Positions 6,117 to 48,400 of a DNA stretch of 64,000 nt are shown here, piece by piece. Source of the stretch: Alphaproteobacteria bacterium (lineage in GTDB: Bacteria; Pseudomonadota; Alphaproteobacteria; Rickettsiales; UBA998); contig RDXO01000017.1 in NCBI GenBank assembly GCA_004292675.1, positions 17,099 to 81,098 on the forward strand. Direction: 5' to 3'. Position 1 is the stretch's first letter. Each line of letters opens with the position of its first letter. The notes beneath the pieces were generated by a model. The model searched no databases and was not told the origin of the DNA. It was given only the letters and a program-made list of their open reading frames with translations. The position numbers were made by a program, and so were the translations under genes.

Positions 6117-6134
6117 GTGAAATTTTTATGACAT
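6117..6134 (-). promoter_or_regulatory. Pho-box-like direct repeat ATGTCAT-AAAA-ATTTCAC
   Basis: 11-bp period repeat upstream of the orphan pair starting at 6081; spacing to -10 not canonical. Confidence 0.45.
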
Positions 6135-6255
6135 TTGGTAGATAGGGGTTTTTTGTGTGCATCCTAGGGAATATGTTGAATATAGGTGTTTTTTATTTAC
6201 ATATATGAACTATATAGCAAAGTTTAGAATAAAATATATTTATTATTTACTGATG

Positions 6256-6289
6256 TTGTCATATTTTTGTCACATTTTATCTGTATATT
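6256..6289 (+). promoter_or_regulatory. Pho-box-like repeat TTGTCAT-ATTT-TTGTCAC, 10 nt spacer, -10 TATATT
   Basis: Box 6256-6273, hexamer 6284-6289, upstream of orphan ATG 6386. Confidence 0.65.
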
Positions 6290-6385
6290 CAATATATATT
6301 CAATATATGGAAGCAATCCTGTGAGAAGTATCATGGGGTATAATAACATGTAATAATACTTATACATAACTCATTGGAGAAGAAT

Positions 6386-6634
6386 ATGAGCGAAGAAAAT
6401 AATGACATAGCACAGAAACCTCGGAGAAGGGAAACGGAACGAGAACGTTGTGCTAGGATGTTGGCAAAATGTCAGGAGGAATATGCTAATAATCCATCAG
6501 TCATTAGAGGGTGTTTGAGATCGAATGGATGTGCTGGATTTGCGTCAATAGAAGGCGGAGAGGAAGTGGCAAATGCTACCCCTCCTATGTGTACGCCTGT
6601 ACCAGAAAAACAAACGGGTAGTCGTGAGAGATAA
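6386..6634 (+). CDS. Small Cys-containing orphan protein (82 aa)
   Basis: GGAG at 6376-6379 before ATG 6386; 5 Cys; C-terminus ATPPMCTPVPEKQTGSRER. Confidence 0.65.
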   Translation: MSEENNDIAQKPRRRETERERCARMLAKCQEEYANNPSVIRGCLRSNGCAGFASIEGGEEVANATPPMCTPVPEKQTGSRER

Positions 6635-6649
6635 ATAGAGTACGTTTCC

Positions 6650-6693
6650 ATAGAGCGCGTTGGACATACCCCATCTGATGCAACGCGCTCTAT
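6650..6693. repeat. 13-bp perfect inverted repeat ATAGAGCGCGTTG...CAACGCGCTCTAT (short palindromic element or terminator-like hairpin)
   Basis: Arms 6650-6662 and 6681-6693, just after the stop at 6634. Confidence 0.8.
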
Positions 6694-6752
6694 ACTCGAT
6701 ATGTGCATTTTCTGCTGTACTTCTTCTTCATAAGATTTTATAAAATGGGGAT

Positions 6753-7658
6753 ATGAAAAAAACTCCTCCCCCGAAACCCCAAGCGTTTTTGCGCGCTGCG
6801 CGTACCATTACCGAAGCATTACCCTATATGAAGTGCTTTGCAGGTGAGATTTTTGTGATTAAATATGGCGGTCATGCGATGGGTGATGCCGAATTATCAG
6901 AAACATTTGCGCAAGATATTGTCTTGTTGAAAATGGTGGGAATTAAGCCCGTGGTGGTGCATGGCGGAGGGCCGCAAATTGGCAACATGCTGGAACGCCT
7001 CAAAATCAAAAGCGAGTTTATTGAAGGGCTGCGTGTGACGGATAAGGCAGCGGTTGATATTGTGGAAATGGTGCTTGCGGGAACGATTAATAAGGAGATT
7101 GTTACCTCCATCAATCAGGCGGGGGGCGTTGCCGTAGGGATTTCTGGCAAGGATGGGCAGCTTATTCGCGCCCAAAAATTGACGCGCACCACCCGTGATC
7201 CAGAATCAAACATCGAAAAAGTGTTGGATTTAGGTTTTGTTGGTGAGCCAACTCATATTAATGCGGATATTGTCCATGAATTGACTAATTGCGGTATGAT
7301 CCCCGTTATTGCGCCCATTGGTATGGGGGATGATGGCGCAACCTACAACATTAATGCGGATACTGTCGCTGGTGCAATCGCTGCTGCACTTGGAGCGCGT
7401 AAATTGATGATGTTGACGGATGTTGCGGGTGTTTTGGATGAACAAAAAGAATTGATCAGTGAATTAAGTGCAAATGAAGCACGTGCCTTGATTAAAAGCA
7501 AAGTAATTACGGGGGGGATGATCCCCAAAATTGAAACCTGTATCCATACGGTTGAGCATACGGGCGCATCTGCCCATATTTTAGATGGTCGTATTCGGCA
7601 TGTATTGCTTCTTGAAACATTCACCAATCATGGTGCGGGTACGATGCTGGTGGCGTAA
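6753..7658 (+). CDS. argB: Acetylglutamate kinase
   Basis: VIKYGGHAM, VVVHGGGPQI, GLRVTD, YNINADT, GGMIPK motifs. Confidence 0.97.
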   Translation: MKKTPPPKPQAFLRAARTITEALPYMKCFAGEIFVIKYGGHAMGDAELSETFAQDIVLLKMVGIKPVVVHGGGPQIGNMLERLKIKSEFIEGLRVTDKAAVDIVEMVLAGTINKEIVTSINQAGGVAVGISGKDGQLIRAQKLTRTTRDPESNIEKVLDLGFVGEPTHINADIVHELTNCGMIPVIAPIGMGDDGATYNINADTVAGAIAAALGARKLMMLTDVAGVLDEQKELISELSANEARALIKSKVITGGMIPKIETCIHTVEHTGASAHILDGRIRHVLLLETFTNHGAGTMLVA

Positions 7659-7672
7659 GAACCTGCCACGAA
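7656..7672. repeat. Solo end of the palindromic element at 44747..44894
   Basis: TAAGAACCTGCCACGAA is identical to the reverse complement of 44880-44896 and includes the argB TAA stop. Confidence 0.75.
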
Positions 7673-7751
7673 GCTCTACATTTTTTTTGTTGCATTGCAC
7701 CACTATATGTGCTATGAAACACGTAGTTTCTTTGTTTTTGATTTTTTTATT

Positions 7752-7955
7752 ATGCTGAATTACCAACGGTTTCAGGCAATCAATAACCCTTCTTTGCACG
7801 CAACTGTGCGCAATGGAGTGGTGGAAATTACGTTCAATGGCAAGCCAATCGCTAAAAATTTAGCAGATGTCTTGATGAAAGGTGGGAGTACAGATGAAGG
7901 TACGCCCAAATTGAATAGTTTTGGCTTAGATACACGCTATTGGCGTGCTATCTAA
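7752..7955 (+). CDS. Small hypothetical protein
   Basis: 67-aa ORF from ATG 7752 followed by a terminator; no clear RBS. Confidence 0.4.
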   Translation: MLNYQRFQAINNPSLHATVRNGVVEITFNGKPIAKNLADVLMKGGSTDEGTPKLNSFGLDTRYWRAI

Positions 7956-7960
7956 GGGAA

Positions 7961-7999
7961 GAAAAGAGAGATGAAGCAAGTGCTTATCTCTCTTTTTTT
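7961..7999. terminator. Bidirectional intrinsic terminator
   Basis: AAAAGAGAGAT-GAAGCA/TGCTT-ATCTCTCTTTTTTT hairpin between convergent ORFs. Confidence 0.7.
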
Positions 8000-8011
8000 A
8001 TACGTAATGCG

Positions 8012-9493
8012 TTATAATCCCAATGCGGGTTTATACATGCTTGCTGCCACAAAGCGACTCATGGATACAAGATAGCGTTCTACGGCTTTGACATGGCGCA
8101 CTCGTGCTTCTGCTAAGGTTTCTTCCCGTAAGTTAAGCAAAAAGAAGTCGCTTGCGCCATCTTCAAAGCGCAACCGTTCTGCTTGCAATAGGGCTTCTGC
8201 CACCTGCATTTCTTCCGCTGTGATCTGCATCATTTGTTTGCCAATGGATAAATCATTTTCGATGGTACGCAGAGCAATCAAGATTTGCTCATTCATACGG
8301 GAGCGATCCAGTGCGATCATGCGTTTATCGGCATCTGCCATCCTGATACGCCCTTCCGCTTGGCGTGTTTGCAACGGAATGGATAGCTGTAATTTTACAC
8401 GCGATTCAGTTTGCTCATAGATGCGCTGATCATTACCCACATCTTGTGACACTTCGGTGCTGAGATCAAGTTTGGGGAGGATTTGATTTTTGGCAAGTTT
8501 ACGGTTTTGGTCAAAACGACGATCCAGCACATCAAGACGGCGGAGATCGGGGCGACGCGTGATGAGATCCTTGGCAAGATGGATAATCCCTTCATCATGG
8601 TGATATTCTTGATGCGCCCCCCATGCCATATCCGCCCAACTGAGATCAAAATCTTTGGGCAAGGATGCATCATTAGGAAGCAGTGGCGCGCCCTCAGCAT
8701 CACGATGATAGAAGGATAAATCTTGCGCACTGCTTACCCAAGAACGTTTTGCATCGCGCAGTGCGGATTTACGCTTAAGCATATTTTGCTGGTTTTCCAC
8801 AAGAAAGATTCGGGCTTTATTGCCTGCATTCACCTCTGTGGTGAGGGCATCTTGACGATTATTCGCAAGTCGCCAAATATCTTTGCGTATGCCATATTCA
8901 AGCCCACGCGATACCCATCCCCAATAGGAAGTAATTGCGGCAAGTTGCGCATTAATCTGTTCAAGCTCAAGTGCTAATTTTGATTCTTCAAGGCGGAGTT
9001 CTTCATCAATAATGGCAAAACGACGGCTATCAATATCACGATCACGTAGTAATGAGAAAATCGCACCCACCGCGATTTCTCCGCCATCTTGGGTACGGAA
9101 TTTTCCCTCATAGGAAGGGTAATCCCCACCAGAGATACCATATTGGGCATAGACGCGTGTATTAAAATCTGCAATAGGCTGATTCAGACGCAGTGCGCTG
9201 TAGCGTCCATCATAGAACCCTGTGCCACGAAGATCATGATTTCCATCAAGTGTGGGATCAAACGCTCCTTGAGCAGAAAGTACCGCAGCTTCTTGTCGGG
9301 CAATGCCTTCTTTGGCGCGCAAAATTGTCGGCAAATGCTGAGCTGATCGCTCCAGCACGTCATGGGGCATGAGAGGGTTTGCACATGCCTGCCATGCACT
9401 CACGCTGCTTAGGCTGAAGCAGAACGCCCATAGGAGAGTTTTTTTATAGGACTTATGCAGTTGTCCGCAAAATAAAAGATTATTTTTTAACAT
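8012..9493 (-). CDS. TolC family outer membrane channel
   Basis: AQGAFDP N-terminal motif, two OEP-like helical repeats; operon with HlyD and ABC genes. Confidence 0.88.
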   Translation of the reverse strand: MLKNNLLFCGQLHKSYKKTLLWAFCFSLSSVSAWQACANPLMPHDVLERSAQHLPTILRAKEGIARQEAAVLSAQGAFDPTLDGNHDLRGTGFYDGRYSALRLNQPIADFNTRVYAQYGISGGDYPSYEGKFRTQDGGEIAVGAIFSLLRDRDIDSRRFAIIDEELRLEESKLALELEQINAQLAAITSYWGWVSRGLEYGIRKDIWRLANNRQDALTTEVNAGNKARIFLVENQQNMLKRKSALRDAKRSWVSSAQDLSFYHRDAEGAPLLPNDASLPKDFDLSWADMAWGAHQEYHHDEGIIHLAKDLITRRPDLRRLDVLDRRFDQNRKLAKNQILPKLDLSTEVSQDVGNDQRIYEQTESRVKLQLSIPLQTRQAEGRIRMADADKRMIALDRSRMNEQILIALRTIENDLSIGKQMMQITAEEMQVAEALLQAERLRFEDGASDFFLLNLREETLAEARVRHVKAVERYLVSMSRFVAASMYKPALGL

Positions 9494-10562
9494 CGGCTTT
9501 CCTGATCAGATCAGTGTTGTTGGGCGGGAAGCCATTGAGCTGTCGCCATAATTCAAATCCAAGTGGCACGGTATCAAGTAATACCCATGCTTGTACTTTC
9601 GATCCATAACGTAGGTAGGTTTCATTAGGCCAGTGATAAGAACCATCATGATGTGGGGTGGATTCTGTGATGGGTTCTGGTAGAATCAAGACACGAAATT
9701 TTCCGCTTAAAGATGCCGCAGGATCAACGGATAAAACACGCCCACGGAATGTTCCCACTGCCGTTTCAGGCCATCCACTAAATTGCAGGGCAGGCCACCC
9801 TTCAAAGATCATACGTACTTCGCGGTTAGGCTTGACAAGAGGCGCATCAAGACCGCTGATAAAAAGTTCTACTGCCATCGAATTATTATCGGGCAAAATA
9901 TCTGCCAAGCGATCACCGCTTTTCACAAAACTTGCCGTGCCTGATGTGCGCATATTGGTAATCATCCCATCAGTAGGGGCAATGATTTCTTGGGTGGAAA
10001 GGCGGGAAAGTTGCACTTGCGATTTATTAAAGGATGCCCGAGCATCGCGTGCTTTGGCTTTTTTCTCTTTATAGACGATTTTAGCCTTTTCATATTCTTT
10101 TCGTGATGCAAGCCCTTGACGGAAAAGATTTTCTTGTCGCTTATAATCGAGGCGGGCAGTATCGCTTGCAATCTCTGCATACTCAACTTTTTGGCGCATG
10201 GCATCCCGATCGCCTTCTAAGCGTTGCAATAATTGCGGATCATTATCCACTAAACGAGCAATGATTGTTCCTGCTTTCACATGCTGTCCATCACGCACCA
10301 GCCATTCTTGAATCCGCCCATCGATCATAGCGGTGATAGGTTGTGGGCGTTGTGCGGGATCAAGCGCGGTGATCGTTCCTTGTCCTTCAGAGGTTTGCAC
10401 CCATGGCGTGAACATGAGTCCTACAAACATCACGAGCAAGGCCGTTAATAACATGCGCGCAATAAATCGTCCTGCACGGGGCATACGCTGGTTGTGCAAC
10501 GTCGTAAATAGGTTCGTATGCTCTGGGTTATATTGAATATGGATGATTGGTTCTGCGCCCAT
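9480..10562 (-). CDS. HlyD family membrane fusion protein
   Basis: TM then PWVQT..G, lipoyl-like hairpin (IDGRIQEWLVRDGQHVKAG), FEGWPALQFSGWP motif. Confidence 0.9.
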   Translation of the reverse strand: MGAEPIIHIQYNPEHTNLFTTLHNQRMPRAGRFIARMLLTALLVMFVGLMFTPWVQTSEGQGTITALDPAQRPQPITAMIDGRIQEWLVRDGQHVKAGTIIARLVDNDPQLLQRLEGDRDAMRQKVEYAEIASDTARLDYKRQENLFRQGLASRKEYEKAKIVYKEKKAKARDARASFNKSQVQLSRLSTQEIIAPTDGMITNMRTSGTASFVKSGDRLADILPDNNSMAVELFISGLDAPLVKPNREVRMIFEGWPALQFSGWPETAVGTFRGRVLSVDPAASLSGKFRVLILPEPITESTPHHDGSYHWPNETYLRYGSKVQAWVLLDTVPLGFELWRQLNGFPPNNTDLIRKADVKK

Positions 10563-28289: not shown

Positions 28290-28589
28290 TTATGTCGTGC
28301 CGCCTCCATTAGGTTCAGTATTTTCCGCACCACCTTCTTGGGCTGCACCTAAGGCATAGACGCATAATTCTTCAAATGACACATTATTTTCCTGTGAGAT
28401 TTTGAACAATTTTTCAAAACTATTCATCACATCCTGAGGAATAGAGCCACCACGTTCGCTTGAAAGCCAATTAGACTGATTCAATAACGGATGTTTCTTT
28501 GGGTGCGGTTCGCCAACATAGACATGAAAGGGATGCTTTTGTCCGCCAAAATCACATGGTATAGTAAAACGCTTCATAACAACACTCAT
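28290..28589 (-). CDS. DUF2610 domain-containing protein
   Basis: MKRFTIPCDFGGQK.PF.VY.G.P....HPL..Q..WL..ERGG.IP..VM.SF..L..I..EN.VSFEELC.YAL; alternative start 28577. Confidence 0.8.
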   Translation of the reverse strand: MSVVMKRFTIPCDFGGQKHPFHVYVGEPHPKKHPLLNQSNWLSSERGGSIPQDVMNSFEKLFKISQENNVSFEELCVYALGAAQEGGAENTEPNGGGTT

Positions 28590-28881: not shown

Positions 28882-29574
28882 CTATAATGATCTTCCTGCT
28901 TCGCGTGCGCCAGCATCGGGTTTAATCACATTCACCCAAAGACCATCTTCTTTGTTGGTACGCGCACTTCTTTGTGCTTGTTCTGGTTGAGGATGGCTAT
29001 GCTGTTGTTCCTGCGCGAGATCAGGACGTACAGAATGGATAAGATCGGTCGCTTCTTTCACTAATTTAGGACCGTCTTTCCCCATAAATCCTTCTGCTGC
29101 CATATGATCAAGGCTTTGCATTTGTGCTTTGTCCATATGGTGTGGATCAATAACCATGGTATGCATAGGTTGAGCTTCTTTAGCAAACATCGTGTCATCA
29201 CCCATAGTGACAGTGATTTTCTTGGTTTCAGGATCCATAATGACCTTTGGTGCAGGCGCAGTAACTGACGTTTTTTGGGTGTGACTTGCCTCAACATCGC
29301 CATGCACATGTGCCGTAACGACGGCTAGATCAACATCAAGAGTACCCGCTATTTTATCTTTTGTTTTTTCATTCGCAACCACTGTGGCTTGTTGACTTCC
29401 CACAATAACCGCATTATTGGTAATGACTTCGATAATCGGCGCGTTATCCTCTTTATCATAGCTTACATTAATACCAATCACAGGGTTTCCCGCAGTGTCA
29501 AGAGCTTTGGCTATATCAGTAATGATGGCTTCTGTGGTAGGAATGGTATGGTGTGGCAACTTCTGAGTAGTCAT
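28882..29574 (-). CDS. Orphan hypothetical protein
   Basis: GAGG RBS; ends GLWVNVIKPDAGAREAGRSL. Confidence 0.75.
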   Translation of the reverse strand: MTTQKLPHHTIPTTEAIITDIAKALDTAGNPVIGINVSYDKEDNAPIIEVITNNAVIVGSQQATVVANEKTKDKIAGTLDVDLAVVTAHVHGDVEASHTQKTSVTAPAPKVIMDPETKKITVTMGDDTMFAKEAQPMHTMVIDPHHMDKAQMQSLDHMAAEGFMGKDGPKLVKEATDLIHSVRPDLAQEQQHSHPQPEQAQRSARTNKEDGLWVNVIKPDAGAREAGRSL

Positions 29575-29598: not shown

Positions 29599-29838
29599 TT
29601 ATGCACGTTTTGAAAGTTGGGGTTGCAATTCAAAGGCGAAAAAAATCACCTCAGCGAATTTTGGAGAAAAAAGTTTGTTCAACACCATGCGCTTAATCGA
29701 TTCCTTAAACGCACGACGATTTTCATCATTCAATCCAATATTCACAGTGATGGCCGATAAACCGCCATCTGCAACAGGATTGCTGCATAAAACTAAATTG
29801 TCACCAATGGCTTGTATATAATGATTCGGGTCAAACAT
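29599..29838 (-). CDS. Small hypothetical protein
   Basis: 79-aa ORF ending 24 nt upstream of the next ORF on the same strand. Confidence 0.5.
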   Translation of the reverse strand: MFDPNHYIQAIGDNLVLCSNPVADGGLSAITVNIGLNDENRRAFKESIKRMVLNKLFSPKFAEVIFFAFELQPQLSKRA

Positions 29839-29989
29839 TTTTTTCTCTTGTGTGTATCATATAGTGTGTAGCGAACGAACGCAAGCACGAATGGACGGAA
29901 TTTATGAAATTTATCACACCTCGTTAATAAACTTTTCCGCATTATGCTTTATCATAGATCGTTTGATAATCTATACATACACCAGAATC

Positions 29990-30089: not shown

Positions 30090-30698
30090 TTAATCAACTT
30101 CAATGCGCACACCATTTGTTCCGCTATCGCGTGGTGCATCGGGTGAAATAGTAAAGCGTACTGCTTTATTCACCGTTCCCTTGGCATTCAGTGCAAGGGC
30201 AACGCTGGTGCGTTCATTCGCCAATGTACAATGTGCGATATAATTTCCTTTTGGAATGTTTACCAGCAAAATAGGTCCTTCGGTTACGGTGCTTAGCACT
30301 TCATTATTGTGCTTATCCATAATCGTCACCATCACGCCAGAAACATATGCTCCGCCTTGTCCCGTGAAAACCATTTTTAAGGGATAGCGTGATTGCATTT
30401 GTTGGATGGTAGCGCGACTTTCTTCGCCGACACCCCCTGAGAGTACAAGCGGCAATGTTGCCATAGGTTCTGTTGCGGTGCTTGGATCGGCTGCAGAAAC
30501 TGTTGCTTCATGATGATGCGGGGCAGGAGCGAAAGCAGGGGGCGTTGCTAGAGCTGTACCAACTGAGGGTATATATGGCGCATTGGGTTGTAATTGTTGA
30601 TATTGCTCATCCAATGTGATGGCATGAGATGGCGCAGTAGAACACACGCACGCGACACAAAGGCTTGCAATAAGGAAGCGTGAAGATAGATAAGGCAT
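30090..30698 (-). CDS. Exported protein, carboxypeptidase regulatory-like (beta-sandwich) domain
   Basis: AGGAG RBS, signal peptide, SGGVG.E.R, YPLKMVF...GAY..GV.V.I, GP.LLV.IP.G.Y. Confidence 0.7.
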   Translation of the reverse strand: MPYLSSRFLIASLCVACVCSTAPSHAITLDEQYQQLQPNAPYIPSVGTALATPPAFAPAPHHHEATVSAADPSTATEPMATLPLVLSGGVGEESRATIQQMQSRYPLKMVFTGQGGAYVSGVMVTIMDKHNNEVLSTVTEGPILLVNIPKGNYIAHCTLANERTSVALALNAKGTVNKAVRFTISPDAPRDSGTNGVRIEVD

Positions 30699-31924: not shown

Positions 31925-32107
31925 GCATTTTTCCGCTTGACATAATAATGCCAAAAGTGCTATTTTTGCATCTTACCTTCTCATTTTGATTTTTCACTGT
32001 GAGCTATATTGTCACATTCGTGTGTCAGTCTTTTTTTTTGCTACCAGAGTACTTCTTTAATGAGAAGGTGATTCTTGTCGTCTATATTCCTTCGGGAGTT
32101 TTTAATC

Positions 32108-32935
32108 ATGAGTTCTATGATGGATCCGACAACACTTCTGTTTCATTTGATCGATCATCAACTGAAAGAAGAAAGTTTGCAACTTTCGCGTGAACAACTG
32201 GCTATTTCAAAGCAGCAACTCACCCTTGCCTATCAACGCATGGGAATGGATGCTGAAAAGTTGCGACTCTACCAAGAGCGCAATGCGATGGAATGGGAGC
32301 GTTTTGAACAACAGCAATCATCCTACGTCTACGACTTGTTCAAAGTCTATGATGATGAGAAGCGCGCTTTTACTTTGCGTTATTTTACGGAAGAAAAAGC
32401 ATTTACCTATCTGATGGTATGGTTGGTCACAAGCCGAACCTTGCCATGCTCTGTGGAACAAGTGCCTTTGTTGATGCTCCTCCCCGCTGCGCAAAAACGT
32501 GCCTTGGTGGAAGCGTATCTTGACAATTCTTTGCATCAAGCTATCCCTCACGCCGTGCAGCTTGCATTGGAAGGGGAAGCGAAACGCAAGGAACAGGCAT
32601 TGCCCGTTGAAAACAAGGCTAACGATGACTGGGAACGCCATGTGAAAAAATTCACACGGCAACACAGGTTTGCCGCTCGCTATCAGGGAACACAGCGCAC
32701 GCTTTGGGGTGGGATTCGTCAGGTCATGCTAATTTATTTTATACCTGCAAGTGCAAACGTGGTTCCTCCTGAAGATTGCTGGTATCAGTATGAATCGGAG
32801 TTTGGGTACGGATGGCATCGTCGTATCGACGCTAGTGATAGGACAAAATATGTACTTGCTTATCCTCCCAAAAACCAAAATCCTAAGGGAGGACGAGCGT
32901 GGTTTGATTTTGACGAGCTTATAATCACTAATTGA
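32108..32935 (+). CDS. Orphan hypothetical protein with N-terminal coiled coil
   Basis: GGAG at about 32095 before ATG 32108; ORF track start 32075. Confidence 0.65.
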   Translation: MSSMMDPTTLLFHLIDHQLKEESLQLSREQLAISKQQLTLAYQRMGMDAEKLRLYQERNAMEWERFEQQQSSYVYDLFKVYDDEKRAFTLRYFTEEKAFTYLMVWLVTSRTLPCSVEQVPLLMLLPAAQKRALVEAYLDNSLHQAIPHAVQLALEGEAKRKEQALPVENKANDDWERHVKKFTRQHRFAARYQGTQRTLWGGIRQVMLIYFIPASANVVPPEDCWYQYESEFGYGWHRRIDASDRTKYVLAYPPKNQNPKGGRAWFDFDELIITN

Positions 32936-32975
32936 CACTAAGCACGTGATTTTTTTGTTGGGATTCATTCCTATG

Positions 32976-33017: not shown

Positions 33018-33030
33018 GTTTCATACTCTT

Positions 33031-33104
33031 GTCATTCTTGGCGTAAGGCAGGAATCCAGTAACAATAGTAGTTTATGGATACCCGCTTGATCTAAGGGTA
33101 TGAC
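33031..33104. repeat. Inverted REP-like doublet (GTCATTC...GGAATCCA / TGGATACCC...GGGTATGAC)
   Basis: Degenerate GTCAT-hairpin-ATCCA unit and its inverse; second unit matches 26012-26037. Confidence 0.7.
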
Positions 33105-33156: not shown

Positions 33157-33190
33157 TCGTCATCATAATGTAACAATCCTATGTGATAGT
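33157..33190 (+). promoter_or_regulatory. Pho-box-like repeat TCGTCAT-CATA-ATGTAAC, 10 nt spacer, -10-like GATAGT
   Basis: Box 33157-33174, hexamer 33185-33190, GAGGT RBS, ATG 33229. Confidence 0.6.
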
Positions 33191-33228: not shown

Positions 33229-35325
33229 ATGAGTAAAAAAACAGATGGACTGTACCAATTTAGTGGTGATTCCCCGATTGCGGAAATTTATTTCCGTCAG
33301 CGTGAAGGGGGCGTGGTGCAGGCGTTCATGAAGCCGAAAGCAGGTGCGACATCACTAGAAGTTGGTGACTTGCCCGTACAGTTGGCAAAAAAAGGCATTG
33401 GCGGAGCATATGCCGATGTGCGCGAAGGCGAAAACGTCCTTTCCCTGCCTCCGATGAAAGATGAAAGCCAGCTTATTGGCGTATTGCAAGAGATGGGCAT
33501 GGTGCGTGGTGCTGTGCAGCGTCAGGATGTGGCGCGTGAAGATTTGGCGAAACAAAGTGCGTGGGATGAATTCCGTAGCCGTACTATTGAGCTTTCAGGC
33601 TATGCTGCTATTCCCGGTTATGCCGCGATTTTCGCTGATGGTCTGTGGGCAAGCAAAGTTAGAGATCCATACCTTGCCGTCACGGCGGCAGGGGTGGTTA
33701 AGCCACTCACTATGTTGCGTTATGGTTCAGGTGATAAAAATGCGGAGATTAATCATGTCATTGAAGGCTTGGATAATCATTTTTATGCATCGGGCAATCC
33801 ACTGCCTATGCGTGATGATGTGTCCCCTGAGCGCAATACATTAGAGAAAGTCGATGATTTTATCCGCAAGAACTCCGTGACGATTGCTTATACCGTAGGT
33901 TCGGCAGCGGCAGCAGCAGGTATGTATTCTGCGGTGAATCAGAAGAAAGGTGTCTTTGAATCAGAGAAAGATGCAGAAGGTAAACCAATTAAGGTGTTCA
34001 AATATCATGATACGGATAAAGACGGAAAACCTTATCCTAAGTTCGATAAACAGGGAAATAAATTTCCTGATAGTTTGAAAGATCCAATTTATAATAGCAG
34101 AGATAAAACCCATGAATACACTGAAAAGCCTTTAGAAGTCAATGGTCGTTATAAACTTGCAAAAAATCCTGATGGTAGCGATAAGTTCACACCTGAACCC
34201 ATCAACTGGGAACGTCTTATCTTAAACACCACCACATTCGTAGGGAACGGACTGGTTGCGATTCTGCCTGCAAAGGAAGAAAATCCTGATGTCGCACGCA
34301 AAAAACGCCATGATGAAGCAGAAAAAGAACCTGTGGAAGTGGTGAGTATTGAGAATGTTGGCAACATGATCAAAGGCTTCGGTGAATTTGTTGGCACAAA
34401 GACCATGCAATTTAATGGTTTGTTCAATTTCTCGGACATTCTGTGCTGGGCGCGTGAAACAATGAAGGAAGCGCATAAGCTGAGCAAAGGTGACTTAGAA
34501 GGAAATGAACAAGCACGCCCTTGGTTGATCGGGATCACCACTGCATCGCTTGGTGCATCCATCATCCTTGAGATGCTTTCTTCTAAAAACTTGTCGCAAG
34601 AAGAAAAACTTGCGCAATTTGATAAAATCTATGCAACCTGTGCGCAATCGCTTCTGCAAATGCCAGAAGAAAAACGTGCGGGGACAATGCAGGAAATGGC
34701 AACGTATCTTGCCGCGCAAGATTCCCTCTATGTTGCAGGTGTCACATCGGATATGGTCAAAGGTCATATTGAAGAACGCCTCAGCATTATGGAACACAGC
34801 CCATGGGTGCGCACATTCTCGCGTGCATCTGATAAGGCGGACAATTTAACCCTAACTTCATCTAACACAACATCCAAGGAGAATATTATGACTGAAGCTG
34901 CAACCGTGGCTACCCATGAAACAAATGCACATGTTGCACCTGTTGCACATCATGAAACACCAGTGCATACTACGCCTGCTGCACCTGTTGCGGAGCATAA
35001 GCCTGTTGAACATGCTGCACCTGTTGCGGAGCATGAAGCACCAGTGCATACTACGTCTGCTGCACCTGTAGCGCATCATGAAGCACCAGTGCATACTACG
35101 CCTGCTGCACCTGTAGCGCATCATGAAGCACCAGTGCATACTACGCCTGTTGAACATGCTGCACCTGTTGCGGAGCATAAGCCTGCTGAACTCACGCATC
35201 AGGAAAAAGTAACGCATTTAGAGAATTCTTTGGCACATCCTGCAGTGCCGGGAACATCATCTCTTGATTCAGTTCACCCTGTAGGTAAGGTTGCGGAAGC
35301 CTCTCTTCAAAGAGCGGTATCATAA
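33229..35325 (+). CDS. Orphan multi-hydrophobic-segment protein with His/Pro/Ala-rich C-terminal repeats
   Basis: 698-aa ORF with GAGGT RBS; internal AAGGAG and in-frame ATG at 34888. Confidence 0.8.
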   Translation: MSKKTDGLYQFSGDSPIAEIYFRQREGGVVQAFMKPKAGATSLEVGDLPVQLAKKGIGGAYADVREGENVLSLPPMKDESQLIGVLQEMGMVRGAVQRQDVAREDLAKQSAWDEFRSRTIELSGYAAIPGYAAIFADGLWASKVRDPYLAVTAAGVVKPLTMLRYGSGDKNAEINHVIEGLDNHFYASGNPLPMRDDVSPERNTLEKVDDFIRKNSVTIAYTVGSAAAAAGMYSAVNQKKGVFESEKDAEGKPIKVFKYHDTDKDGKPYPKFDKQGNKFPDSLKDPIYNSRDKTHEYTEKPLEVNGRYKLAKNPDGSDKFTPEPINWERLILNTTTFVGNGLVAILPAKEENPDVARKKRHDEAEKEPVEVVSIENVGNMIKGFGEFVGTKTMQFNGLFNFSDILCWARETMKEAHKLSKGDLEGNEQARPWLIGITTASLGASIILEMLSSKNLSQEEKLAQFDKIYATCAQSLLQMPEEKRAGTMQEMATYLAAQDSLYVAGVTSDMVKGHIEERLSIMEHSPWVRTFSRASDKADNLTLTSSNTTSKENIMTEAATVATHETNAHVAPVAHHETPVHTTPAAPVAEHKPVEHAAPVAEHEAPVHTTSAAPVAHHEAPVHTTPAAPVAHHEAPVHTTPVEHAAPVAEHKPAELTHQEKVTHLENSLAHPAVPGTSSLDSVHPVGKVAEASLQRAVS
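34936..35190 (+). repeat. Coding imperfect tandem repeat, 6 units beginning GCACCTGT (APVAHHEAPVHTTPA / APVAEHKPVEHA)
   Basis: Mostly 45-bp units with shorter and longer variants, visible in DNA and protein. Confidence 0.92.
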
Positions 35326-36817: not shown

Positions 36818-37837
36818 CTATTTTGTTTTTTGTGGAGTAGGTGTTGGAGCGGAAGGTGTGGATAAGGGTGGCTGATTTGCCGTGACGCTAACGCCTTGAG
36901 TTGGTTGTACAGTCTCTTGCGGATCAAGAATGTAATAGGTGCTTCCTTTTTTGAGTCCTAGACGAGCTGCTTGTTGTTTGAATTTTTCTACATCTTCATC
37001 ACGCACCACAGGGCAACCTTGTGATCCTTTGGGGCGTGATGCATCTTCGTTTGCAAAGAGGAAATCATTATGCGCTCCAATATAATCACGTTCTTTTTTC
37101 CCATCATCATATTCAAGAAAGAATTTGAAATTCATGGGTTGCCCGTCAATAATTTCTGTTGAGGCGGTATCATGATATTGGGTGATGGTGCGTTTTGCAT
37201 GTATGCCATCGCCCACCTTTCCGCTTGAATCGGTTAATAATCCCGGTAGGGGCGCGTTGCGTGCAGATTCTACCGCATCACTATTGGCAAAATTGGGTAC
37301 ATCAACCTTTTTGCTTCCGCCAGAAATGAAAGGGATAAGTTCTTGTTTTCCATCTTTTTCAAAGACATGGAATCCCATCGCATAGGGATGACCATCGGCA
37401 TGTTGCCCCGCTTTGATGGTGACCATGGCATACACACCCTTTGCACCTGCTTCTTGTTTGATGGCATCAGGGATTTTAATGCGCCCTTGGTAATCCGCAG
37501 GGTTTAGCCATTGTGTATCATTATCTTTTGTTTGATAGGATAAGGTTTGCACGGGAGCGGGTGCAGGTGCAGCTTGAGGCGCAGGAGCAGGCGGAACATA
37601 ATTGACAGGTACGGTTCGTGGTTGCACAACAGGAGGAGGGGGTGTTGTTGTCGGTGTGACGGCTGGGGCAGGAGCAGCTTGCGCTTGTTGCCCTCCGAAT
37701 AATCCGCCAAACATTGATCCTATATTGGGTAGGATGGATGCCATAAATTGTTGTATCTGGGGAAAAAAATTGCCGATCATCGACATAATCTTGCTGAAGA
37801 ACCCCATAATAGGGTTTTGTGGTGTATTATTATCCAT
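36818..37837 (-). CDS. Orphan protein with L,D-transpeptidase (YkuD)-like catalytic motif
   Basis: AAGGA RBS; H-X15-S-Q-G-C (IGAHNDFLFANEDASRPKGSQGCPVV); amphipathic N-terminus, Pro-rich linker and tail. Confidence 0.7.
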   Translation of the reverse strand: MDNNTPQNPIMGFFSKIMSMIGNFFPQIQQFMASILPNIGSMFGGLFGGQQAQAAPAPAVTPTTTPPPPVVQPRTVPVNYVPPAPAPQAAPAPAPVQTLSYQTKDNDTQWLNPADYQGRIKIPDAIKQEAGAKGVYAMVTIKAGQHADGHPYAMGFHVFEKDGKQELIPFISGGSKKVDVPNFANSDAVESARNAPLPGLLTDSSGKVGDGIHAKRTITQYHDTASTEIIDGQPMNFKFFLEYDDGKKERDYIGAHNDFLFANEDASRPKGSQGCPVVRDEDVEKFKQQAARLGLKKGSTYYILDPQETVQPTQGVSVTANQPPLSTPSAPTPTPQKTK

Positions 37838-37873: not shown

Positions 37874-37907
37874 AGTATAGATGATTTATATTACCGTATT
37901 ATTACAA
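37874..37907 (-). promoter_or_regulatory. Pho-box-like repeat TTGTAAT-AATA-CGGTAAT, 10 nt spacer, -10 TATACT
   Basis: Box 37907-37890, hexamer 37879-37874, ATG 37837. Confidence 0.6.
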
Positions 37908-41699: not shown

Positions 41700-41703
41700 T
41701 ATA

Positions 41704-43685: not shown

Positions 43686-44516
43686 TTAACGTACTATAGG
43701 TCGCCATAGGAGAATATCATGATAATAATTCGCATGGGTTTCTGCTACATTCGCCACTAAGGGGGATAGGAGCAGGAGCTTATCATCATCGCAATTTTCA
43801 CTATCATAGGATGCAGCGCAAGCTCGAAAGAGTGTTCCTGCTTGGGTGAACGCGCCTTTGCCGTCAATGCCATGGCTTATTAAGATAAAGGCGGGTAAAT
43901 TTGATGGCGATGTGCCGGAAGCAATATTATTTGGTGCATTGCATATCACGGGCAAGTCTGAGGGCGGTGTGTTTACAGGAATATTATTGGGTAGCTTGCA
44001 TATTACAGGATAATCATTCATCTGCCACGGGCTATAACTACGATAGCCATTGGGATAGACACCCGTAGAGCGAATCATGATATAGGTAATACGACGTTTC
44101 CATGAATCAAAAGCATCATCATCCTTTAGCCCCAATTCGCGCACTGGTACCATGCCAACGATCAGTTGATATTGATCAGGGCTGCCAACAACATTGGGAA
44201 TCATTTGTGTACCATCGAGGGTTACGCTGGGCGTTTGGCATTTGGTGGAACTTCGACCGAAATTGGCTGAATTGAGCGGTACTTCGCGTGATGCAGGGCA
44301 GGGGAGATAATCATGAAATTGTGCATAGAACTGCAAAGACTTCGCAATTTTTTCCATGCGTGTTTGGGTGCTAAGATAGGTTTTTTCTTGGCGTTTTTGT
44401 GATGCGTCACCGAGCAATGATGCCATAAGCAAGGCAAACATTGTCAAGATGATGGACATTTCAATGAGTGAAAAACCTTCGTGATGGTGTCCGCCGTGAT
44501 GGTATGATCTGCGCAT
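43686..44516 (-). CDS. Prepilin-type N-terminal cleavage/methylation domain protein (type IV pilin/pseudopilin-like)
   Basis: G|FSLIE followed by a hydrophobic helix; LPCPA, G.VP..ELGL...D..D.W...I.Y, ISHG.DG.GA. Confidence 0.82.
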   Translation of the reverse strand: MRRSYHHGGHHHEGFSLIEMSIILTMFALLMASLLGDASQKRQEKTYLSTQTRMEKIAKSLQFYAQFHDYLPCPASREVPLNSANFGRSSTKCQTPSVTLDGTQMIPNVVGSPDQYQLIVGMVPVRELGLKDDDAFDSWKRRITYIMIRSTGVYPNGYRSYSPWQMNDYPVICKLPNNIPVNTPPSDLPVICNAPNNIASGTSPSNLPAFILISHGIDGKGAFTQAGTLFRACAASYDSENCDDDKLLLLSPLVANVAETHANYYHDILLWRPIVR

Positions 44517-44537: not shown

Positions 44538-44569
44538 ATCATATCAAAATTAGATAAAAAATTCTTTAA
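44538..44569 (-). promoter_or_regulatory. CtrA-box-like TTAA-N7-TTTAT, 10 nt spacer, -10 TATGAT
   Basis: Minus strand TTAAAGAATTTTTTAT CTAATTTTGA TATGAT upstream of prepilin ATG 44516. Confidence 0.4.
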
Positions 44570-44730: not shown

Positions 44731-44746
44731 AGCGAATCTCCCTTTT

Positions 44747-44894
44747 AGAACCTGCCCCGAATCTCTCTCTTATGGTCTGCAAATGGTGGTTTTTTGCGCT
44801 TACAAAAGCTCATGTACTTCTATGTACTACTTAAGCTACGGTTCTCAAAAACCACCATTTTCGCCTCATAATAAAAAGATTCGTGGCAGGTTCT
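44747..44894. mobile_element. 148-bp palindromic element (RPE/MITE-like)
   Basis: 18-bp terminal IR AGAACCTGCCCCGAATCT / AGATTCGTGGCAGGTTCT (1 mismatch); inner IR AAATGGTGGTTTTT/AAAAACCACCATTT. Confidence 0.8.
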
Positions 44895-45064
44895 TAGCTT
44901 TATTAGTTATGGTGCTGTATAGTCGTTTGACAAAAAAATTACTCATTTTTTATGTCAAGTGCGACTATAATACTATGATTTATAGTGCTTTTTCCATTAT
45001 ATCATGCCGATCAATCGATAATGATATAATGGCAGCACTATAGCCATGAGGATGGCGATCGGTG

Positions 45065-45313
45065 CTATCTCCACCAAGGGCGACCAAGATTGATTTTGCT
45101 CTCATCGGAAAGCCCACCAAGAGCTGCACCGACTCCCGCACCGACCAACATACCTGTTCCCGCTGCGCCCCCAACGGCAGCACCCGCCACGAGTCCCGTA
45201 GCAGCCCCAAGCCCCGCACCGCTAATGGCGCGATCCGCTTGCGTGTGACCGCATGAGGTGGTAATAAAGCTCATGATCCCTAGGCATAAAATAGGTTTAA
45301 TAGATAATTTCAT
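45065..45313 (-). CDS. Small glycine-zipper lipoprotein
   Basis: Lipobox-like TTSC, DRAISGAGLGAATG..GAGVGAALGG, INLGRPWW; alternative GTG start 45322. Confidence 0.82.
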   Translation of the reverse strand: MKLSIKPILCLGIMSFITTSCGHTQADRAISGAGLGAATGLVAGAAVGGAAGTGMLVGAGVGAALGGLSDESKINLGRPWWR

Positions 45314-45343
45314 AGAGTACACCTTAAAAGATTGTGTGTGGGA

Positions 45344-46513
45344 TCAGCCAAGTGCGATAGGAGCAGATTGTTCTTGTGCAACGCTCTCAGCCCAGTTTTG
45401 TTGCCCTGCACCGCGTGGTGTTAAGCCGCGAGCTGCCATTTTTTGTTGCCAACTCATGGTAGCACCCATTTGTAGGTTTTGCGCGATCATATCCGCTTGA
45501 CGGGCTTGTTCGTTTGTGTCAAAGGTGGCATTTTGAAGTTGCTCAATTTGTCCATCTAATGCATTGAGACGTTCAACGCGCCCCGCATTTTGATCCATAA
45601 CATGCTTTAATGCCAGTGCCGTACCGACAGCAGCAATAGTACCTGCGGTGACTTTGCCTGCAACGCCAACTCGTGCCTTTACATTGTCATAAAATTGCGT
45701 TCGTTGCGTGTCATTTAATGTTTCAATTTTTAGTTTTTGAAATTCTTGTGCAGCTCCCTCAGCAGCTCCTTCTGCTCCCGCCACGTTCGTTGCATCAAAT
45801 GCTTTTTTGGCTTCTTTGTTGATTTTGTCTAAAACAGGATTTTCAAACAATACCTCACGTGCTGCGTTGAGACCTTTCCCAATAATATTGGTGGTTTCTT
45901 TCGCGTCCGTTTTAGCAGCTTCAAGTAATTTGGTGGATAAATCACCCATATTAGTTTCAGCAGCTTTTAGAACATCCTCTATTCTAGCTCCCGGCTTAAG
46001 ATTTTGAACTGCTGGGTTGTCTAATAGTTCTTTAAGTGCTTCTTGCGTTTTAGGATTCTTATCAAGTTTTTCGACGGATTTCTTAAGTTGCTCAAGCGTC
46101 TGACCTTCGCCAAAATGCGCACCAAAAGAGTTCAAGAATTTTTCTAAAAAATTCAACTGATCAGGAGTGCGCGTTTGCACCAATTTTTCTGCTTGTGATT
46201 TAATGGCATCAGCACTAGCGAAATTGGAAATAGAATCAACAGCACGCTTCCCTATTTCATTCCCTGCATACATACCAACGCCTGCAACTGCAGCAGTCTT
46301 TACTAAGCCCATCGGCTTGTCTGCGCGAACGCGCTCCGCTTCGATGGCGTTTTGCTGTGTAGTCAAGCCCCGCGATTGTTCACGCAACCCTTCCGCAGCA
46401 TAAGCAAGTTGTTGGGCTTGCATGAATTGTTGCATCGTTTCTTGATCCACGCCAGCCTGTTGTAGTTGTTCTACCATCTGTGCTTGTTGCGCTTGTTGTT
46501 GGGTGTTTTCCAT
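45344..46513 (-). CDS. Orphan Gln-rich protein with two Gly/Ala hydrophobic segments; candidate effector
   Basis: AGGAG before ATG 46513; ends QNWAESVAQEQSAPIALG. Confidence 0.78.
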   Translation of the reverse strand: MENTQQQAQQAQMVEQLQQAGVDQETMQQFMQAQQLAYAAEGLREQSRGLTTQQNAIEAERVRADKPMGLVKTAAVAGVGMYAGNEIGKRAVDSISNFASADAIKSQAEKLVQTRTPDQLNFLEKFLNSFGAHFGEGQTLEQLKKSVEKLDKNPKTQEALKELLDNPAVQNLKPGARIEDVLKAAETNMGDLSTKLLEAAKTDAKETTNIIGKGLNAAREVLFENPVLDKINKEAKKAFDATNVAGAEGAAEGAAQEFQKLKIETLNDTQRTQFYDNVKARVGVAGKVTAGTIAAVGTALALKHVMDQNAGRVERLNALDGQIEQLQNATFDTNEQARQADMIAQNLQMGATMSWQQKMAARGLTPRGAGQQNWAESVAQEQSAPIALG

Positions 46514-46550
46514 AGAGGAATAGCTCCTAGCTTTTTGTTCTATCCCTTTC

Positions 46551-46584
46551 ACTATAATCTAAAGCTGTTACAGATTCGTTACAA
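46551..46584 (-). promoter_or_regulatory. Pho-box-like repeat TTGTAAC-GAAT-CTGTAAC, 10 nt spacer, -10 TATAGT
   Basis: Box 46584-46567, hexamer 46556-46551, ATG 46513. Confidence 0.65.
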
Positions 46585-46615
46585 TGCACAGGATTTTTTT
46601 AAGAAAATGTTCTTT

Positions 46616-48226
46616 CTACTTCAAACGTTCATAGGCAGGTAGCGTCAGGAACTCCACATAATCCGCATTGAGTGTTTGTTGTTCAAGCATTTGTGCAGCA
46701 GGGATATAAAGCCCAGCGGCATAAACATCTGATCCTACTTGTGCTTCAATCGCTTTGAGTTCTTCCGCAATAACGCGTTTGAGTAATAGCACATCAATAA
46801 CGCGCCCATCTTCGAGCGTGCCTTCATGATGCACCCATTGCCATAATTGCGTGCGCGATATTTCTGCCGTGGCAGCATCTTCCATCAGGTTGAAGATCGG
46901 CACGCAGCCATTGCCCGCCATCCATGATGCCATATATTGAATGCACACATTAACATTGTTGCGTAGTCCCGCCTCGGTGATTGTGCCTTGTGGTACGCGT
47001 AGCAAATCTTCTGCCGTCACATGCACCGCAGGGCGCGCTTTATCGACTTGATTCGGTGTAGGCATATGCTCATTAAACACTGCCATCGCGGTGGGAATGA
47101 GACCCGGATGCGCCACCCATGTACCATCATGCCCAAACGTCACTTCACGGAGTTTATCCGCACGTACCTTATCAAGTGCGGCTTGGTTAGCAGCATCATC
47201 CCCTTTAATCGGGATTTGTGGTGCCATCCCCCCCATGGCAAATGCGCCACGTTCATGGCAGGTTTGAATCAATAATTGTGCATAGGATTGTAAGAAGTGC
47301 GTTGTCATCGTCACTTGGGCGCGATCAGGCAACATAAATTCGGAATGTTTATTGAATTTTTTGACAAAGCTAAAAATATAATCCCAACGTCCGCAATTTA
47401 AGCCAACGGCATAATCCTTCAAATGCCACAATATCTCATGCATTTGGAAGACGGCGGAGATTGTTTCAATCAGGATGGTGGCTTTAATCGTGCCTTTTGG
47501 CAATCCGATATATTCTTCAGAGAACGCGAAGATTTTTGCCCAGAATGCCGCTTCTTCGTAATATTCCAATTTTGGCAGATAAAAGAACGGTCCTGTACCA
47601 CGTTCTGCTTGATAATGGGCATTATGAAAGAAGAATAAGCCAAAATCGAGCAACGCACCCGCTAAGGGTCTGCCGTTATATATGACGTGCTTTTCAGGTA
47701 AATGCCAACCGCGTGGGCGTACAATCAAGGTTGCGATGTCGTTATTTAATGTGTAGCTTTTGCCTTCAGGGGAGTTATAACGTAATTGGTGACGTACAGC
47801 ATCATAGAGCGCGCCTTGCCCTTCTACGATTTTTTCCCATGTAGGGCTTAAGGAATCCTCAAAATCCACCATAAAGACTTTTGCGCCTGAATTTAAGGCA
47901 TTGATGATCATTTTTGGTTCGGCTGGACCTGTGATTTCAACGCGACGATCCTGCAATGCGTGCGGAATGGGTGCAACGCTCCATGCTGATTCACGGATAT
48001 GCGCTGTTTCGGGGCGAAAATCAAGGCTTCCTTCTGCATCGACTGCTTTTTGACGTTCCTTGCGTGTTGCCAGCAACTGATCACGTTCAGGCATAAAACG
48101 ATCCGCGAGTGCTTCGATAAATGCAAGTGCCTCCTTGCTGTATATTGCAGCATAATGTTCTGCAACAGGTAAGGTCAGCGTGAGTTTTGATGAAACGTGA
48201 GCAGCATGGGAAGAGGCAAGAGTCAT
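46616..48226 (-). CDS. aceB: Malate synthase A
   Basis: DRRVEITGP, DFEDS, IVRPRGWHL, GLNCGRWDYIFS, LMEDAATAEISR; MSA length; ATG 48226 after AAGGA. Confidence 0.96.
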   Translation of the reverse strand: MTLASSHAAHVSSKLTLTLPVAEHYAAIYSKEALAFIEALADRFMPERDQLLATRKERQKAVDAEGSLDFRPETAHIRESAWSVAPIPHALQDRRVEITGPAEPKMIINALNSGAKVFMVDFEDSLSPTWEKIVEGQGALYDAVRHQLRYNSPEGKSYTLNNDIATLIVRPRGWHLPEKHVIYNGRPLAGALLDFGLFFFHNAHYQAERGTGPFFYLPKLEYYEEAAFWAKIFAFSEEYIGLPKGTIKATILIETISAVFQMHEILWHLKDYAVGLNCGRWDYIFSFVKKFNKHSEFMLPDRAQVTMTTHFLQSYAQLLIQTCHERGAFAMGGMAPQIPIKGDDAANQAALDKVRADKLREVTFGHDGTWVAHPGLIPTAMAVFNEHMPTPNQVDKARPAVHVTAEDLLRVPQGTITEAGLRNNVNVCIQYMASWMAGNGCVPIFNLMEDAATAEISRTQLWQWVHHEGTLEDGRVIDVLLLKRVIAEELKAIEAQVGSDVYAAGLYIPAAQMLEQQTLNADYVEFLTLPAYERLK

Positions 48227-48382
48227 AAAGCGTTCCTTGAATTCTGAAAATGAACAATGCGTCATCTTAACAAGAAGTGATCACAGGAGCAAGCAGGAAT
48301 TACAAGACGGGGGTGTTATTTCAATCTTTGCGTGGCACATGAGCCATGCAAAAAATGCATTGCACTATTTTTGTCGATGCGA

Positions 48383-48400
48383 CTGTCATTTAATCTTCAC
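48383..48400 (+). promoter_or_regulatory. Pho-box-like repeat CTGTCAT-TTAA-TCTTCAC
   Basis: Upstream of orphan ATG 48471; TATAAT at 48444 is not at the 10-nt spacing. Confidence 0.5.

Follow-up and report, generated by a model that had tools for sequence, protein, structure and literature searches.

Two described regulatory systems are among the closest to the one we report here. The first is the phosphate (Pho) regulon of Escherichia coli, where the Pho box is a pair of 11-bp direct repeats that both contain a conserved 7-bp CTGTCAT, as described in PMC2648988, and where PhoB binds in a head-to-tail arrangement and makes contact with sigma-70, as described in PMC4415409. The second is the control of Legionella's Icm/Dot effectors, where, according to PMC6989116, PmrA and CpxR (PmrA also in Coxiella) directly activate 30-40 dispersed effector genes each, together with some secretion-system genes. 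Here we present a Pho-box-like promoter element in a Rickettsiales genome (Alphaproteobacteria, UBA998; GenBank assembly GCA_004292675.1), starting from a stretch of 64,000 nucleotides (nt) of contig RDXO01000017.1, positions 17,099 to 81,098, which we call the window. An initial annotation of the window had listed seven direct repeats upstream of orphan genes and proposed that these genes are co-induced by PhoB or another OmpR-family regulator, an interpretation that our analysis supports in part. The repeat, with consensus TTGTCAT-N4-TTGTCAT followed after 10 nt by TAnnnT, defines a genome-wide promoter class.

These promoters share with those of the Pho regulon the two direct repeats, the 11-bp period and the TGTCAT core (TTGTCAT here, CTGTCAT in E. 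coli), and here the box occupies the place of the -35 element at a fixed short distance from the -10. In E. coli, 10 bp separate the Pho box and the -10. The targets are different: instead of phosphate acquisition, they are about 40 mostly family-less genes and a type IV secretion system (T4SS) operon. Also unlike in the Pho regulon, the pst operons of relatives rarely have a good box, phoB has no autoregulatory box, and neither phoU nor pstCAB turned up in the two assemblies of this genus (G000, which holds the window, and G001). As in the PmrA and CpxR regulons, one cis-element marks dozens of dispersed genes plus secretion genes, but in another bacterial class, with a virB/rvh-like type IVA system here and a type IVB system there, and with a different regulator. 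The repeat recognized by PmrA differs in sequence from the box here. Translocation is proven for the Legionella effectors, whereas the box products here are putative substrates. In a search of article full texts we found no description of Pho-box control of T4SS/rvh or effector genes for bacteria of this kind, and the word "promoter" is absent from PMC11077975.

The G000 assembly has 1.60 Mb in 45 contigs, with about 46% G+C and 85.6% completeness, and the window is C34:17099-81098; positions without a contig label are positions in the window. For comparison we use G001 from the same genus (about 86% complete), G014 from another genus, G028 from another family, and further relatives. Genes were called with a simple longest-open-reading-frame caller, and starts are therefore placed too far upstream. 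The reading we favor, with a rough probability of 0.62, is that of activator-dependent Pho-box promoters, most likely PhoB-driven, numbering about 40, with the virB2-virB4 operon as their core and with probable secreted products.

The exact repeat TGTCA-N6-TGTCA occurs 20 times genome-wide on both strands against an expectation of 2.0 (Poisson p 7e-14), and the 24 other spacings between 0 and 24 give 0-9 copies each. The more relaxed TGTMA-N6-TGTMA has 27 sites genome-wide, of which the 21 correctly oriented before a gene are the seeds used to train a 19-column matrix, with site scores in bits. With a threshold of 16 bits, the matrix detects 44 sites (the 21 seeds and 23 new ones), compared to 3, 3 and 2 for three genomes simulated with a third-order Markov model; lowering the threshold to 14 bits gives 60, compared to 12, 11 and 17. 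Intergenic DNA alone has 32 sites, where 20 simulations trained on intergenic DNA give a mean of 1.25 and a maximum of 3. The sites are oriented and placed as promoters would be: for 40 of the 44, a gene begins on the same strand between -150 and +300 nt, 36/44 are intergenic in a genome with an intergenic share of 11.3%, and 24/44 have a TAnnnT at 10 +/- 1 nt, against a background of 7.7%. The alignment of the 21 seeds has a T before and a T or C after each TGTCA, an A/T-rich 4-nt spacer, and -10 columns (T in 16/21, A in 15/21, T in 16/21) that begin 10 nt past the second repeat. No -35 element can be placed; there are instead two TTGTCA hexamers, 22 and 11 nt from the -10. The Pho-box geometry of an oriented promoter class that had been read from seven sites, with its repeats, 11-bp period and 10-nt spacing to TAnnnT, is thus confirmed.

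The excess of the motif over chance is weak within the window and becomes decisive genome-wide (44 sites versus 2-3 simulated). In the window, the degenerate consensus of the initial annotation has 4 matches with at most one mismatch, versus a mean of 1.15 in 100 shuffles, 4 of which reach 4. With at most two mismatches it has 16 matches versus a mean of 16.69, and 63 of the 100 shuffles reach 16. By that consensus alone, the sites at 33157, 48383 and 6134 are not significant.

The flanks of the 44 sites have nothing in common except the box; this is therefore not a repeat family, and we exclude a dispersed repeat or mobile promoter cassette. Two other kinds of repeat appear in our scans. Simple-sequence tracts directly follow the box at C39:22530(-), C44:8528(-) and C22:2180(+), (GATA)n in two cases and (GA)n in one, and two of these three promoters have a TTGACA hexamer at the expected place of the -10; changes in tract length could switch the three promoters on or off. 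The inverted arrangement TGACA-N20-TGTCA has 40 copies in G000 and TGACA-N19-TGTCA has 20, far above neighboring spacings, and these may constitute a palindromic repeat family.

A conserved instance of the promoter lies just outside the window, where a 22.5-bit box at C34:8028 (-) precedes the VirB2 pilin gene C34:7547-7840 and the VirB4 gene C34:5030-7525. The genome also has a cluster of virB3, virB4 and three virB6 genes (C27), a cluster running from virB8 to a virD4-like gene (C33), and a fourth virB6 (C6). This scattered layout is that of the Rickettsiales rvh system as presented in PMC11077975, which likewise has a duplicated VirB4, four VirB6 paralogues, and separate virB3-B4-B6 and virB8-D4 clusters; the same source carries the proposal that rvh kills other microbes in basal free-living lineages. 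VirB4 is present in 31/31 genomes searched and in two copies in 28 of them. Searching 2 kb upstream of the second VirB4, we find a box in 14/20 relatives (best sense-strand match 13.8-27.1 bits), located 1007-1264 nt upstream of VirB4, the same place as in G000, with a chance expectation of about 0.009 per locus. The 14 include G018, G023, G029 and G030, each of which has one exact repeat copy genome-wide. For 15 virB2 promoters anchored on the box, the information content per column is 1.46 bits within the box, 0.95 within the -10 and 0.25-0.39 within the flanks, and a TG immediately upstream of the -10 is conserved as well; anchoring inflates the box columns of this alignment, while the -10 and TG columns are uninflated.

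The element as a whole is conserved beyond the genus. The exact TGTCA-N6-TGTCA, counted on both strands, has 5-26 copies in 16 out of 17 further genomes belonging to this family (G009 has 1), 10-20 copies in five other families within the order, and 0-1 in eight families; the reversed pattern, used as a control, has 0-7 copies. Genes of G014 and G028 are likewise preceded by a box, a 10-nt spacer and TAnnnT, and most of these box genes lack a homologue in G000. Four G014 box genes do match G000 genes (C17:36845, C15:19736, C35:67550 and C12:86213) at 27-34% identity, and these G000 homologues are also boxed, so that the regulatory link outlives most of the protein similarity. Footprinting against G001 is uninformative because the two genomes are 87-96% identical in DNA.

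The window sites and the genes downstream of them are as follows. For minus-strand sites, the coordinate in the initial annotation, by which we also refer to them, is the 5' end of the box.

6256-6273 (+): box TTGTCAT-ATTT-TTGTCAC, 22.0 bits (C34:23355), 10-nt spacer, -10 TATATT at 6284-6289.
6374-6634 (+): 86-amino-acid (aa) open reading frame (ORF) downstream of box 6256, without Pfam family, with a C-terminal R.
6117-6134 (-): box ATGTCAT-AAAA-ATTTCAC, 16.9 bits (C34:23231), with no clear TAnnnT at 10 nt.
5443-6093 (-): 216-aa protein without Pfam family, downstream of box 6134; its start is the first ATG after the box.
30007 to 29990 (-): box ATGTCAT-CAAA-CTGTCAT, 24.3 bits (C34:47104), 10-nt spacer, -10 TATGTA at 29979 to 29974.
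29599-29838 and 28882-29574 (-): two Pfam-less ORFs of 79 aa and 230 aa, downstream of box 30007.
33157-33174 (+): box TCGTCAT-CATA-ATGTAAC, 17.9 bits (C34:50256), 10-nt spacer, -10 GATAGT at 33185-33190.
33229-35325 (+): 698-aa Pfam-less protein with an Ala/Pro/His-rich repeat tail, downstream of box 33157.
37907 to 37890 (-): box TTGTAAT-AATA-CGGTAAT, 15.9 bits (C34:55004), 10-nt spacer, -10 TATACT at 37879 to 37874.
36818-37837 (-): 339-aa protein with a predicted L,D-transpeptidase (YkuD) fold, downstream of box 37907.
46584 to 46567 (-): box TTGTAAC-GAAT-CTGTAAC, 18.2 bits (C34:63681), 10-nt spacer, -10 TATAGT at 46556 to 46551.
45344-46513 (-): 389-aa Pfam-less Gln/Glu-rich protein downstream of box 46584, with WAESVAQEQ 16 residues from its end.
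48383-48400 (+): CTGTCAT-TTAA-TCTTCAC, 8.9 bits, lacking a -10 at the 10-nt distance; membership in the class is not supported.

All seven sequences quoted in the initial annotation are present at their positions, and the four -10 hexamers that it named (TATATT, GATAGT, TATACT and TATAGT) each follow after exactly 10 nt; a fifth, TATGTA after box 30007, had been missed. Six of the seven sites belong to one class, with scores of 15.9-24.3 bits, and 48383 does not (8.9 bits and no -10). The gene that follows it, 48471-50525, has its own TGGTATAAT at 48441-48449. Box 6256 is identical in sequence in G001. The 698-aa protein has a distant paralogue at C35:53006-55105, whose box is among the two top scorers (28.5 bits), and an atlas search with the 698-aa protein gives no usable look-alike. 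The window box genes sit singly among housekeeping genes, such as argB (identified by eye) and the genes for isocitrate dehydrogenase, malate synthase, a methyltransferase and TerC (identified by Pfam). The window also has family-less genes without a box (30090-30698, 32075-32935 and 43686-44516), so that some of the orphans, but not all, are marked by the box.

Several other features of these regions deserve description. Divergent box pairs share one intergenic region at 6117-6273 in the window and at C16:3099/3102, C5:35120/35135 and C5:51104/51163, and the two boxes of a pair drive one family-less gene apiece, each on the strand of the box. Two of the box genes are closely followed by a small gene: a DUF2610 gene at 28290-28589 (-), with 130.9 bits, and a Gly-zipper lipoprotein-like ORF at 45065-45322 (-), with 28.2 bits for a cut-off of 28.9. 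Directly upstream of box 33157, at 33018-33086, there is a palindromic element (gtcattc...ggaatcc). Contigs of another metagenome run end inside it, at 33046-33086, and pieces of 23-39 nt of it are found again close to three further box promoters; this may be a small mobile element. In a freshwater metatranscriptome run, contigs match 32072-32943 exactly, over the family-less and box-less gene 32075-32935, although an RNA library can hold DNA. Searched as contigs, the same RNA run has only short, less similar pieces elsewhere in the window, and no transcript starts or ends.

To characterize the products, we take, for each of the 47 sites with at least 15.5 bits, the first downstream ORF that reaches 80 aa, which results in 38 distinct proteins. 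Just 7 of the 38 have a Pfam family over the cut-off and 31 have none, compared to 27 with a family amongst 30 controls, which are random first-in-unit genes without a box (Fisher p 3.7e-9). The preference of the boxes for orphan genes, suspected from the window, is thus borne out, and there is indeed no recognizable phosphate-scavenging gene among the box genes scanned. The seven families are TrbC/VirB2 pilin, PG_binding_1, Peptidase_M48, Radical_SAM, Polysacc_deac_1, SBF and ChapFlgA, where the last three correspond to genes that follow sites inside called ORFs, and may be false. A sub-threshold match to Glyco_hydro_19 is also found. Several members (PG_binding_1, the polysaccharide deacetylase, the Glyco_hydro_19-like protein and the predicted L,D-transpeptidase fold) appear to point at peptidoglycan, which fits either toxins directed against other bacteria or a remodeling by the cell of its own wall. 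Under a simple, crude rule of hydrophobicity, Sec-like N-termini occur in 4/38 box proteins (10.5%) compared to 22.6% of the other approximately 1,300 proteins.

The ends of the box proteins are also unusual. A C-terminal Arg is found in 15/38 box proteins and in 140/1311 others (p 6e-6, which survives correction for 240 tests), and 16/38 have a Glu or Gln nine residues from the end. A tail motif (F/W)-A-E-x-V-x-x-E-Q, recognized post hoc, lies 16-21 residues from the end in box proteins of G000, G014 and G028. Written as the regular expression [FW][AGSTV][EQDAKT]x[ILVM]xx[EQ], also post hoc, and applied to the last 32 residues, it matches 5/38 box proteins and 9/1312 others. The non-box proteins that match have upstream box scores no better than those of other proteins (p 0.63), and we take this expression, derived from the same data, as a lead only. 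The scarcity of Sec signals, the C-terminal Arg and the fast evolution of the box proteins point indirectly to secreted or translocated products, which may be effectors. Two proteins whose genes have no upstream box, C17:18451-20898 and C25:20331-21251, share the C-terminal motif of the box products, as (W)-(A/T)-Q-R-(V/I)-x-(E/D)-E-Q about 15-19 residues from the end, and could be further substrates under other control. At the opposite end, several box proteins have a similar amphipathic N-terminus, rich in Phe, Ile, Met and Gln and starting M-E/D-W-F..., followed by a Gln/Pro-rich linker. They are 36818-37837(-) in the window, C12:94565-95983(-), and L101, L103 and L104 of G014, two of them with cell-wall enzyme domains. 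This N-terminus and linker may be a shared targeting module.

For the 339-aa protein of 36818-37837, a fold can be proposed. Its features are amphipathic helices at the N-terminus, a Pro-rich linker and, at residues ~110-310, a predicted YkuD fold; there is no Sec-like signal. L,D-transpeptidases have a catalytic motif with a His and a Cys in (S/T)-x-G-C, and H256 and S272-x-G274-C275 are invariant in 7 aligned sequences. Homologues are rare, only 7 at E <= 1e-10 among 1.84 billion representatives, and the seven relatives all end in K, R or H. The predicted model has a mean pLDDT (predicted local distance difference test) of 71.6, with values above 85 across most of residues 101-220 and 271-310. 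When it is compared by VIA-align to 48,161 chains, the top 20 matches are all of L,D-transpeptidase type (Z 8.5-4.0, root-mean-square deviation 2.9-5.4, 107-154 residues aligned), and the next one has Z 2.8. The top 20 include the L,D-carboxypeptidases Pgp2 and Csd6, Bd1075 of Bdellovibrio, and the type VI effector Tlde1a. Foldseek gives no match at E <= 0.001 for the same model (best E 0.065). The Pfam families YkuD, YkuD_2 and Tlde1_dom have no match at threshold in the protein; YkuD_2 is found in 2/7 relatives, with a best E of 0.07. The model indicates that the product has an L,D-transpeptidase fold, in common with Pgp2 (Z 8.5), Csd6 (Z 7.8) and Tlde1a (Z 6.4), together with the His and the Ser-x-Gly-Cys. 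It differs from them in having no threshold Pfam YkuD or Tlde1 match, and no immunity gene adjoins it.

As for the protein that binds the box, PhoB is the best candidate. PhoR-PhoB is reported in one Rickettsiales genome, and as absent from Rickettsia, in PMC6863919. Amongst our genomes, the PhoB equivalog is found over its cut-off in 25/31, including G001. The genomes without it are G000, G006 (77% complete), G019, G020, G021 and G027, the last four of which have 0-1 repeats. The virB2 box is present in 14/17 tested relatives with PhoB and in 0/3 without it, all three from among these four (p 0.018, although kin are not independent). The DNA-binding domain of the G001 PhoB has as its best match the E. 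coli PhoB-DNA structure 1gxp (E 2e-27), and the recognition-helix stretch RTVDVHIRRLRKAL, 14 residues long, is identical in G001 PhoB and E. coli PhoB (1gxp_A). The PhoB of G028 keeps RTVDVHIRRLRKAL and that of G008 has one I-to-V change in it, and the recognition helices of the other OmpR-family regulators differ from that of PhoB. G000 itself has a PhoR-like kinase at C25:22402-23424, with 286 bits, in the same score class as in relatives, and in G028 this kinase adjoins pstB.

In G000, the only OmpR-family (Trans_reg_C) regulators are CtrA (411 bits, over cut-off) and a CopR/CztR-like regulator with an adjacent kinase at C25:80256-82398, which has 251.6 bits for a cut-off of 279 (TIGR01387) and 199.6 bits for a cut-off of 296 for PhoB. 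We set CtrA aside as the binder: box-poor genomes have it as well, and it has a different recognition helix. The CopR-like regulator is a misfit by its distribution across relatives, and its own gene has no box upstream. In G001, phoB lies in a 19-kb region (C12:60000-79000) with smpB, dapA, a uracil-DNA glycosylase gene and the gene for a Trans_reg_C-only protein. A tblastn search of 18 ORFs of this stretch against G000 gives matches only for phoB (to other response regulators) and for one ORF (24% identity). With no G000 counterpart to the smpB-dapA-phoB stretch, absences from this assembly should be read with care. We conclude that the binder is most likely PhoB, from the motif and its spacing, the recognition helix, and the misfit of the CopR-like regulator; of the two options initially offered, PhoB or another OmpR-family regulator, we prefer the first, even though phoB was not found in G000. 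If PhoB binds, the regulon here is dominated by genes other than those for phosphate acquisition.

In the mechanism that we propose, the promoters would be activator-dependent sigma-70 promoters, with repeats 11 bp apart in the place of the -35, ending exactly 10 nt before TAnnnT. A phosphorylated winged-helix response regulator would bind the repeats head to tail and recruit RNA polymerase via sigma region 4. This regulator would most likely be PhoB, partnered by the PhoR-like kinase C25:22402-23424, and phosphate limitation would be the signal. The conserved core target would be the virB2-virB4 operon, and the other targets would be dispersed, fast-evolving, mostly family-less proteins without Sec signals, some of them with peptidoglycan-directed domains.

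A number of results weigh against this proposal, both on the side of the regulator and on that of the products. phoB was not found in the 85.6%-complete G000 assembly; most likely its region is unassembled there, by a gap argument that is indirect. Searches for phoU, pstB and pstC also came out negative for G000 and for G001, each about 86% complete. In G000, a PstS-like gene, C24:22460-23512, lies inside another operon and has no box, and there is none before phoB in G001, G014 or G028. At the pstC loci of 23 relatives, we searched 1.5 kb upstream and found no box of 10 bits or more in 19. A box of at least 13.5 bits is present in 3 of the 23, where ~0.2 are expected (p 0.001). These are G013 with 14.4 bits, G014 with 13.5 (and a second of 9.9) and G024 with 14.3, and G027 has one of 11.8 bits. 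For the comparison with pstS and phoU suggested by the initial annotation, no pst operon was found in G000. Six genomes with PhoB (G009, G013, G018, G023, G029 and G030) have at most five exact copies of the repeat. The other T4SS loci of G000, on C27, C33 and C6, have no box of 11 bits or more, so that of the virB/rvh genes also proposed for comparison, virB2-virB4 has a box, kept in the relatives described above, and the main T4SS operons do not. As for the products, at least one membrane segment is predicted in 42% of the box proteins and in 24% of the others, and beside 36818-37837 there is no immunity-like gene (isocitrate dehydrogenase follows); both observations fit envelope remodeling equally well.

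The most serious competitor keeps the PhoB-driven regulon and takes its products to be the cell's own envelope, pilus and cell-wall remodeling under phosphate stress, rather than delivered effectors. The membrane segments and the lack of a neighboring immunity gene agree with it, as does the position of the core T4SS operons outside the regulon. So does the list of members with known domains, namely the pilin, PG_binding_1, the polysaccharide deacetylase, the M48 peptidase and the L,D-transpeptidase fold. Housekeeping envelope proteins, on the other hand, are usually conserved and Sec-exported, and the box proteins change quickly: a homologue in G000 is lacking for most box genes of G014 and G028, and one family has 7 relatives among 1.84 billion. 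The scarcity of Sec-like N-termini and the C-terminal signature common to box proteins also speak against this alternative, and on balance we find it less likely than not.

A second alternative has the same promoter class bound by a different OmpR-family regulator, either the CopR/CztR-like one of C25:80256-82398 or a third type present in relatives. It has in its favor that the CopR-like protein is the only non-CtrA Trans_reg_C protein in the G000 assembly, and that few pst operons have a box and phoB has none before it. Against this, CopR-like orthologues (at least 53% identity) were not found in the box-rich G003, G007, G008, G010, G016, G024 and G028, of which G008, G010, G024 and G028 are 95-100% complete and G003, G007 and G016 are 82-93% complete, and the box-poor G009 and G029 do have such orthologues. 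The recognition helices of both the CopR-like and the third type differ from that of PhoB, and the lack of a box before the CopR-like gene is a further point. We regard a binder other than PhoB as improbable.

An origin of the sites by chance in intergenic DNA rich in A+T, or as copies of a dispersed repeat, has next to no probability: the chance-level count of the loose window consensus agrees with it, but the count peaks at the N6 spacing alone, the Markov genomes and the intergenic simulation exclude composition, box, orientation and -10 go together, the flanks are unrelated, and the box is conserved in relatives.

Returning to the reading we favor, of PhoB-driven promoters with delivered products, the promoter element could matter well beyond this genome. 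The effectors of rvh-type systems, and how these systems are switched on, are poorly known, especially in uncultured basal lineages. Here an easily scanned, conserved promoter element ties a T4SS operon to about 40 uncharacterized genes per genome, which results in a testable list of candidate substrates, and it offers a candidate regulator, PhoB, and a candidate signal, phosphate limitation. It would also exemplify a nutrient regulon that has been redirected almost entirely to genes other than those for nutrient acquisition. Extended to the whole order, a step that we take tentatively and at less than even odds, PhoB would be the master activator of the operon for the T4SS pilin and VirB4 and of a large, fast-turning translocated arsenal, with some of its members peptidoglycan-attacking toxins used against other bacteria. 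Effectors would then be marked, throughout the order, by the Pho box together with a C-terminal tail signature, which would consist of a Glu or Gln about nine residues from the end, small residues next, and a terminal Arg.

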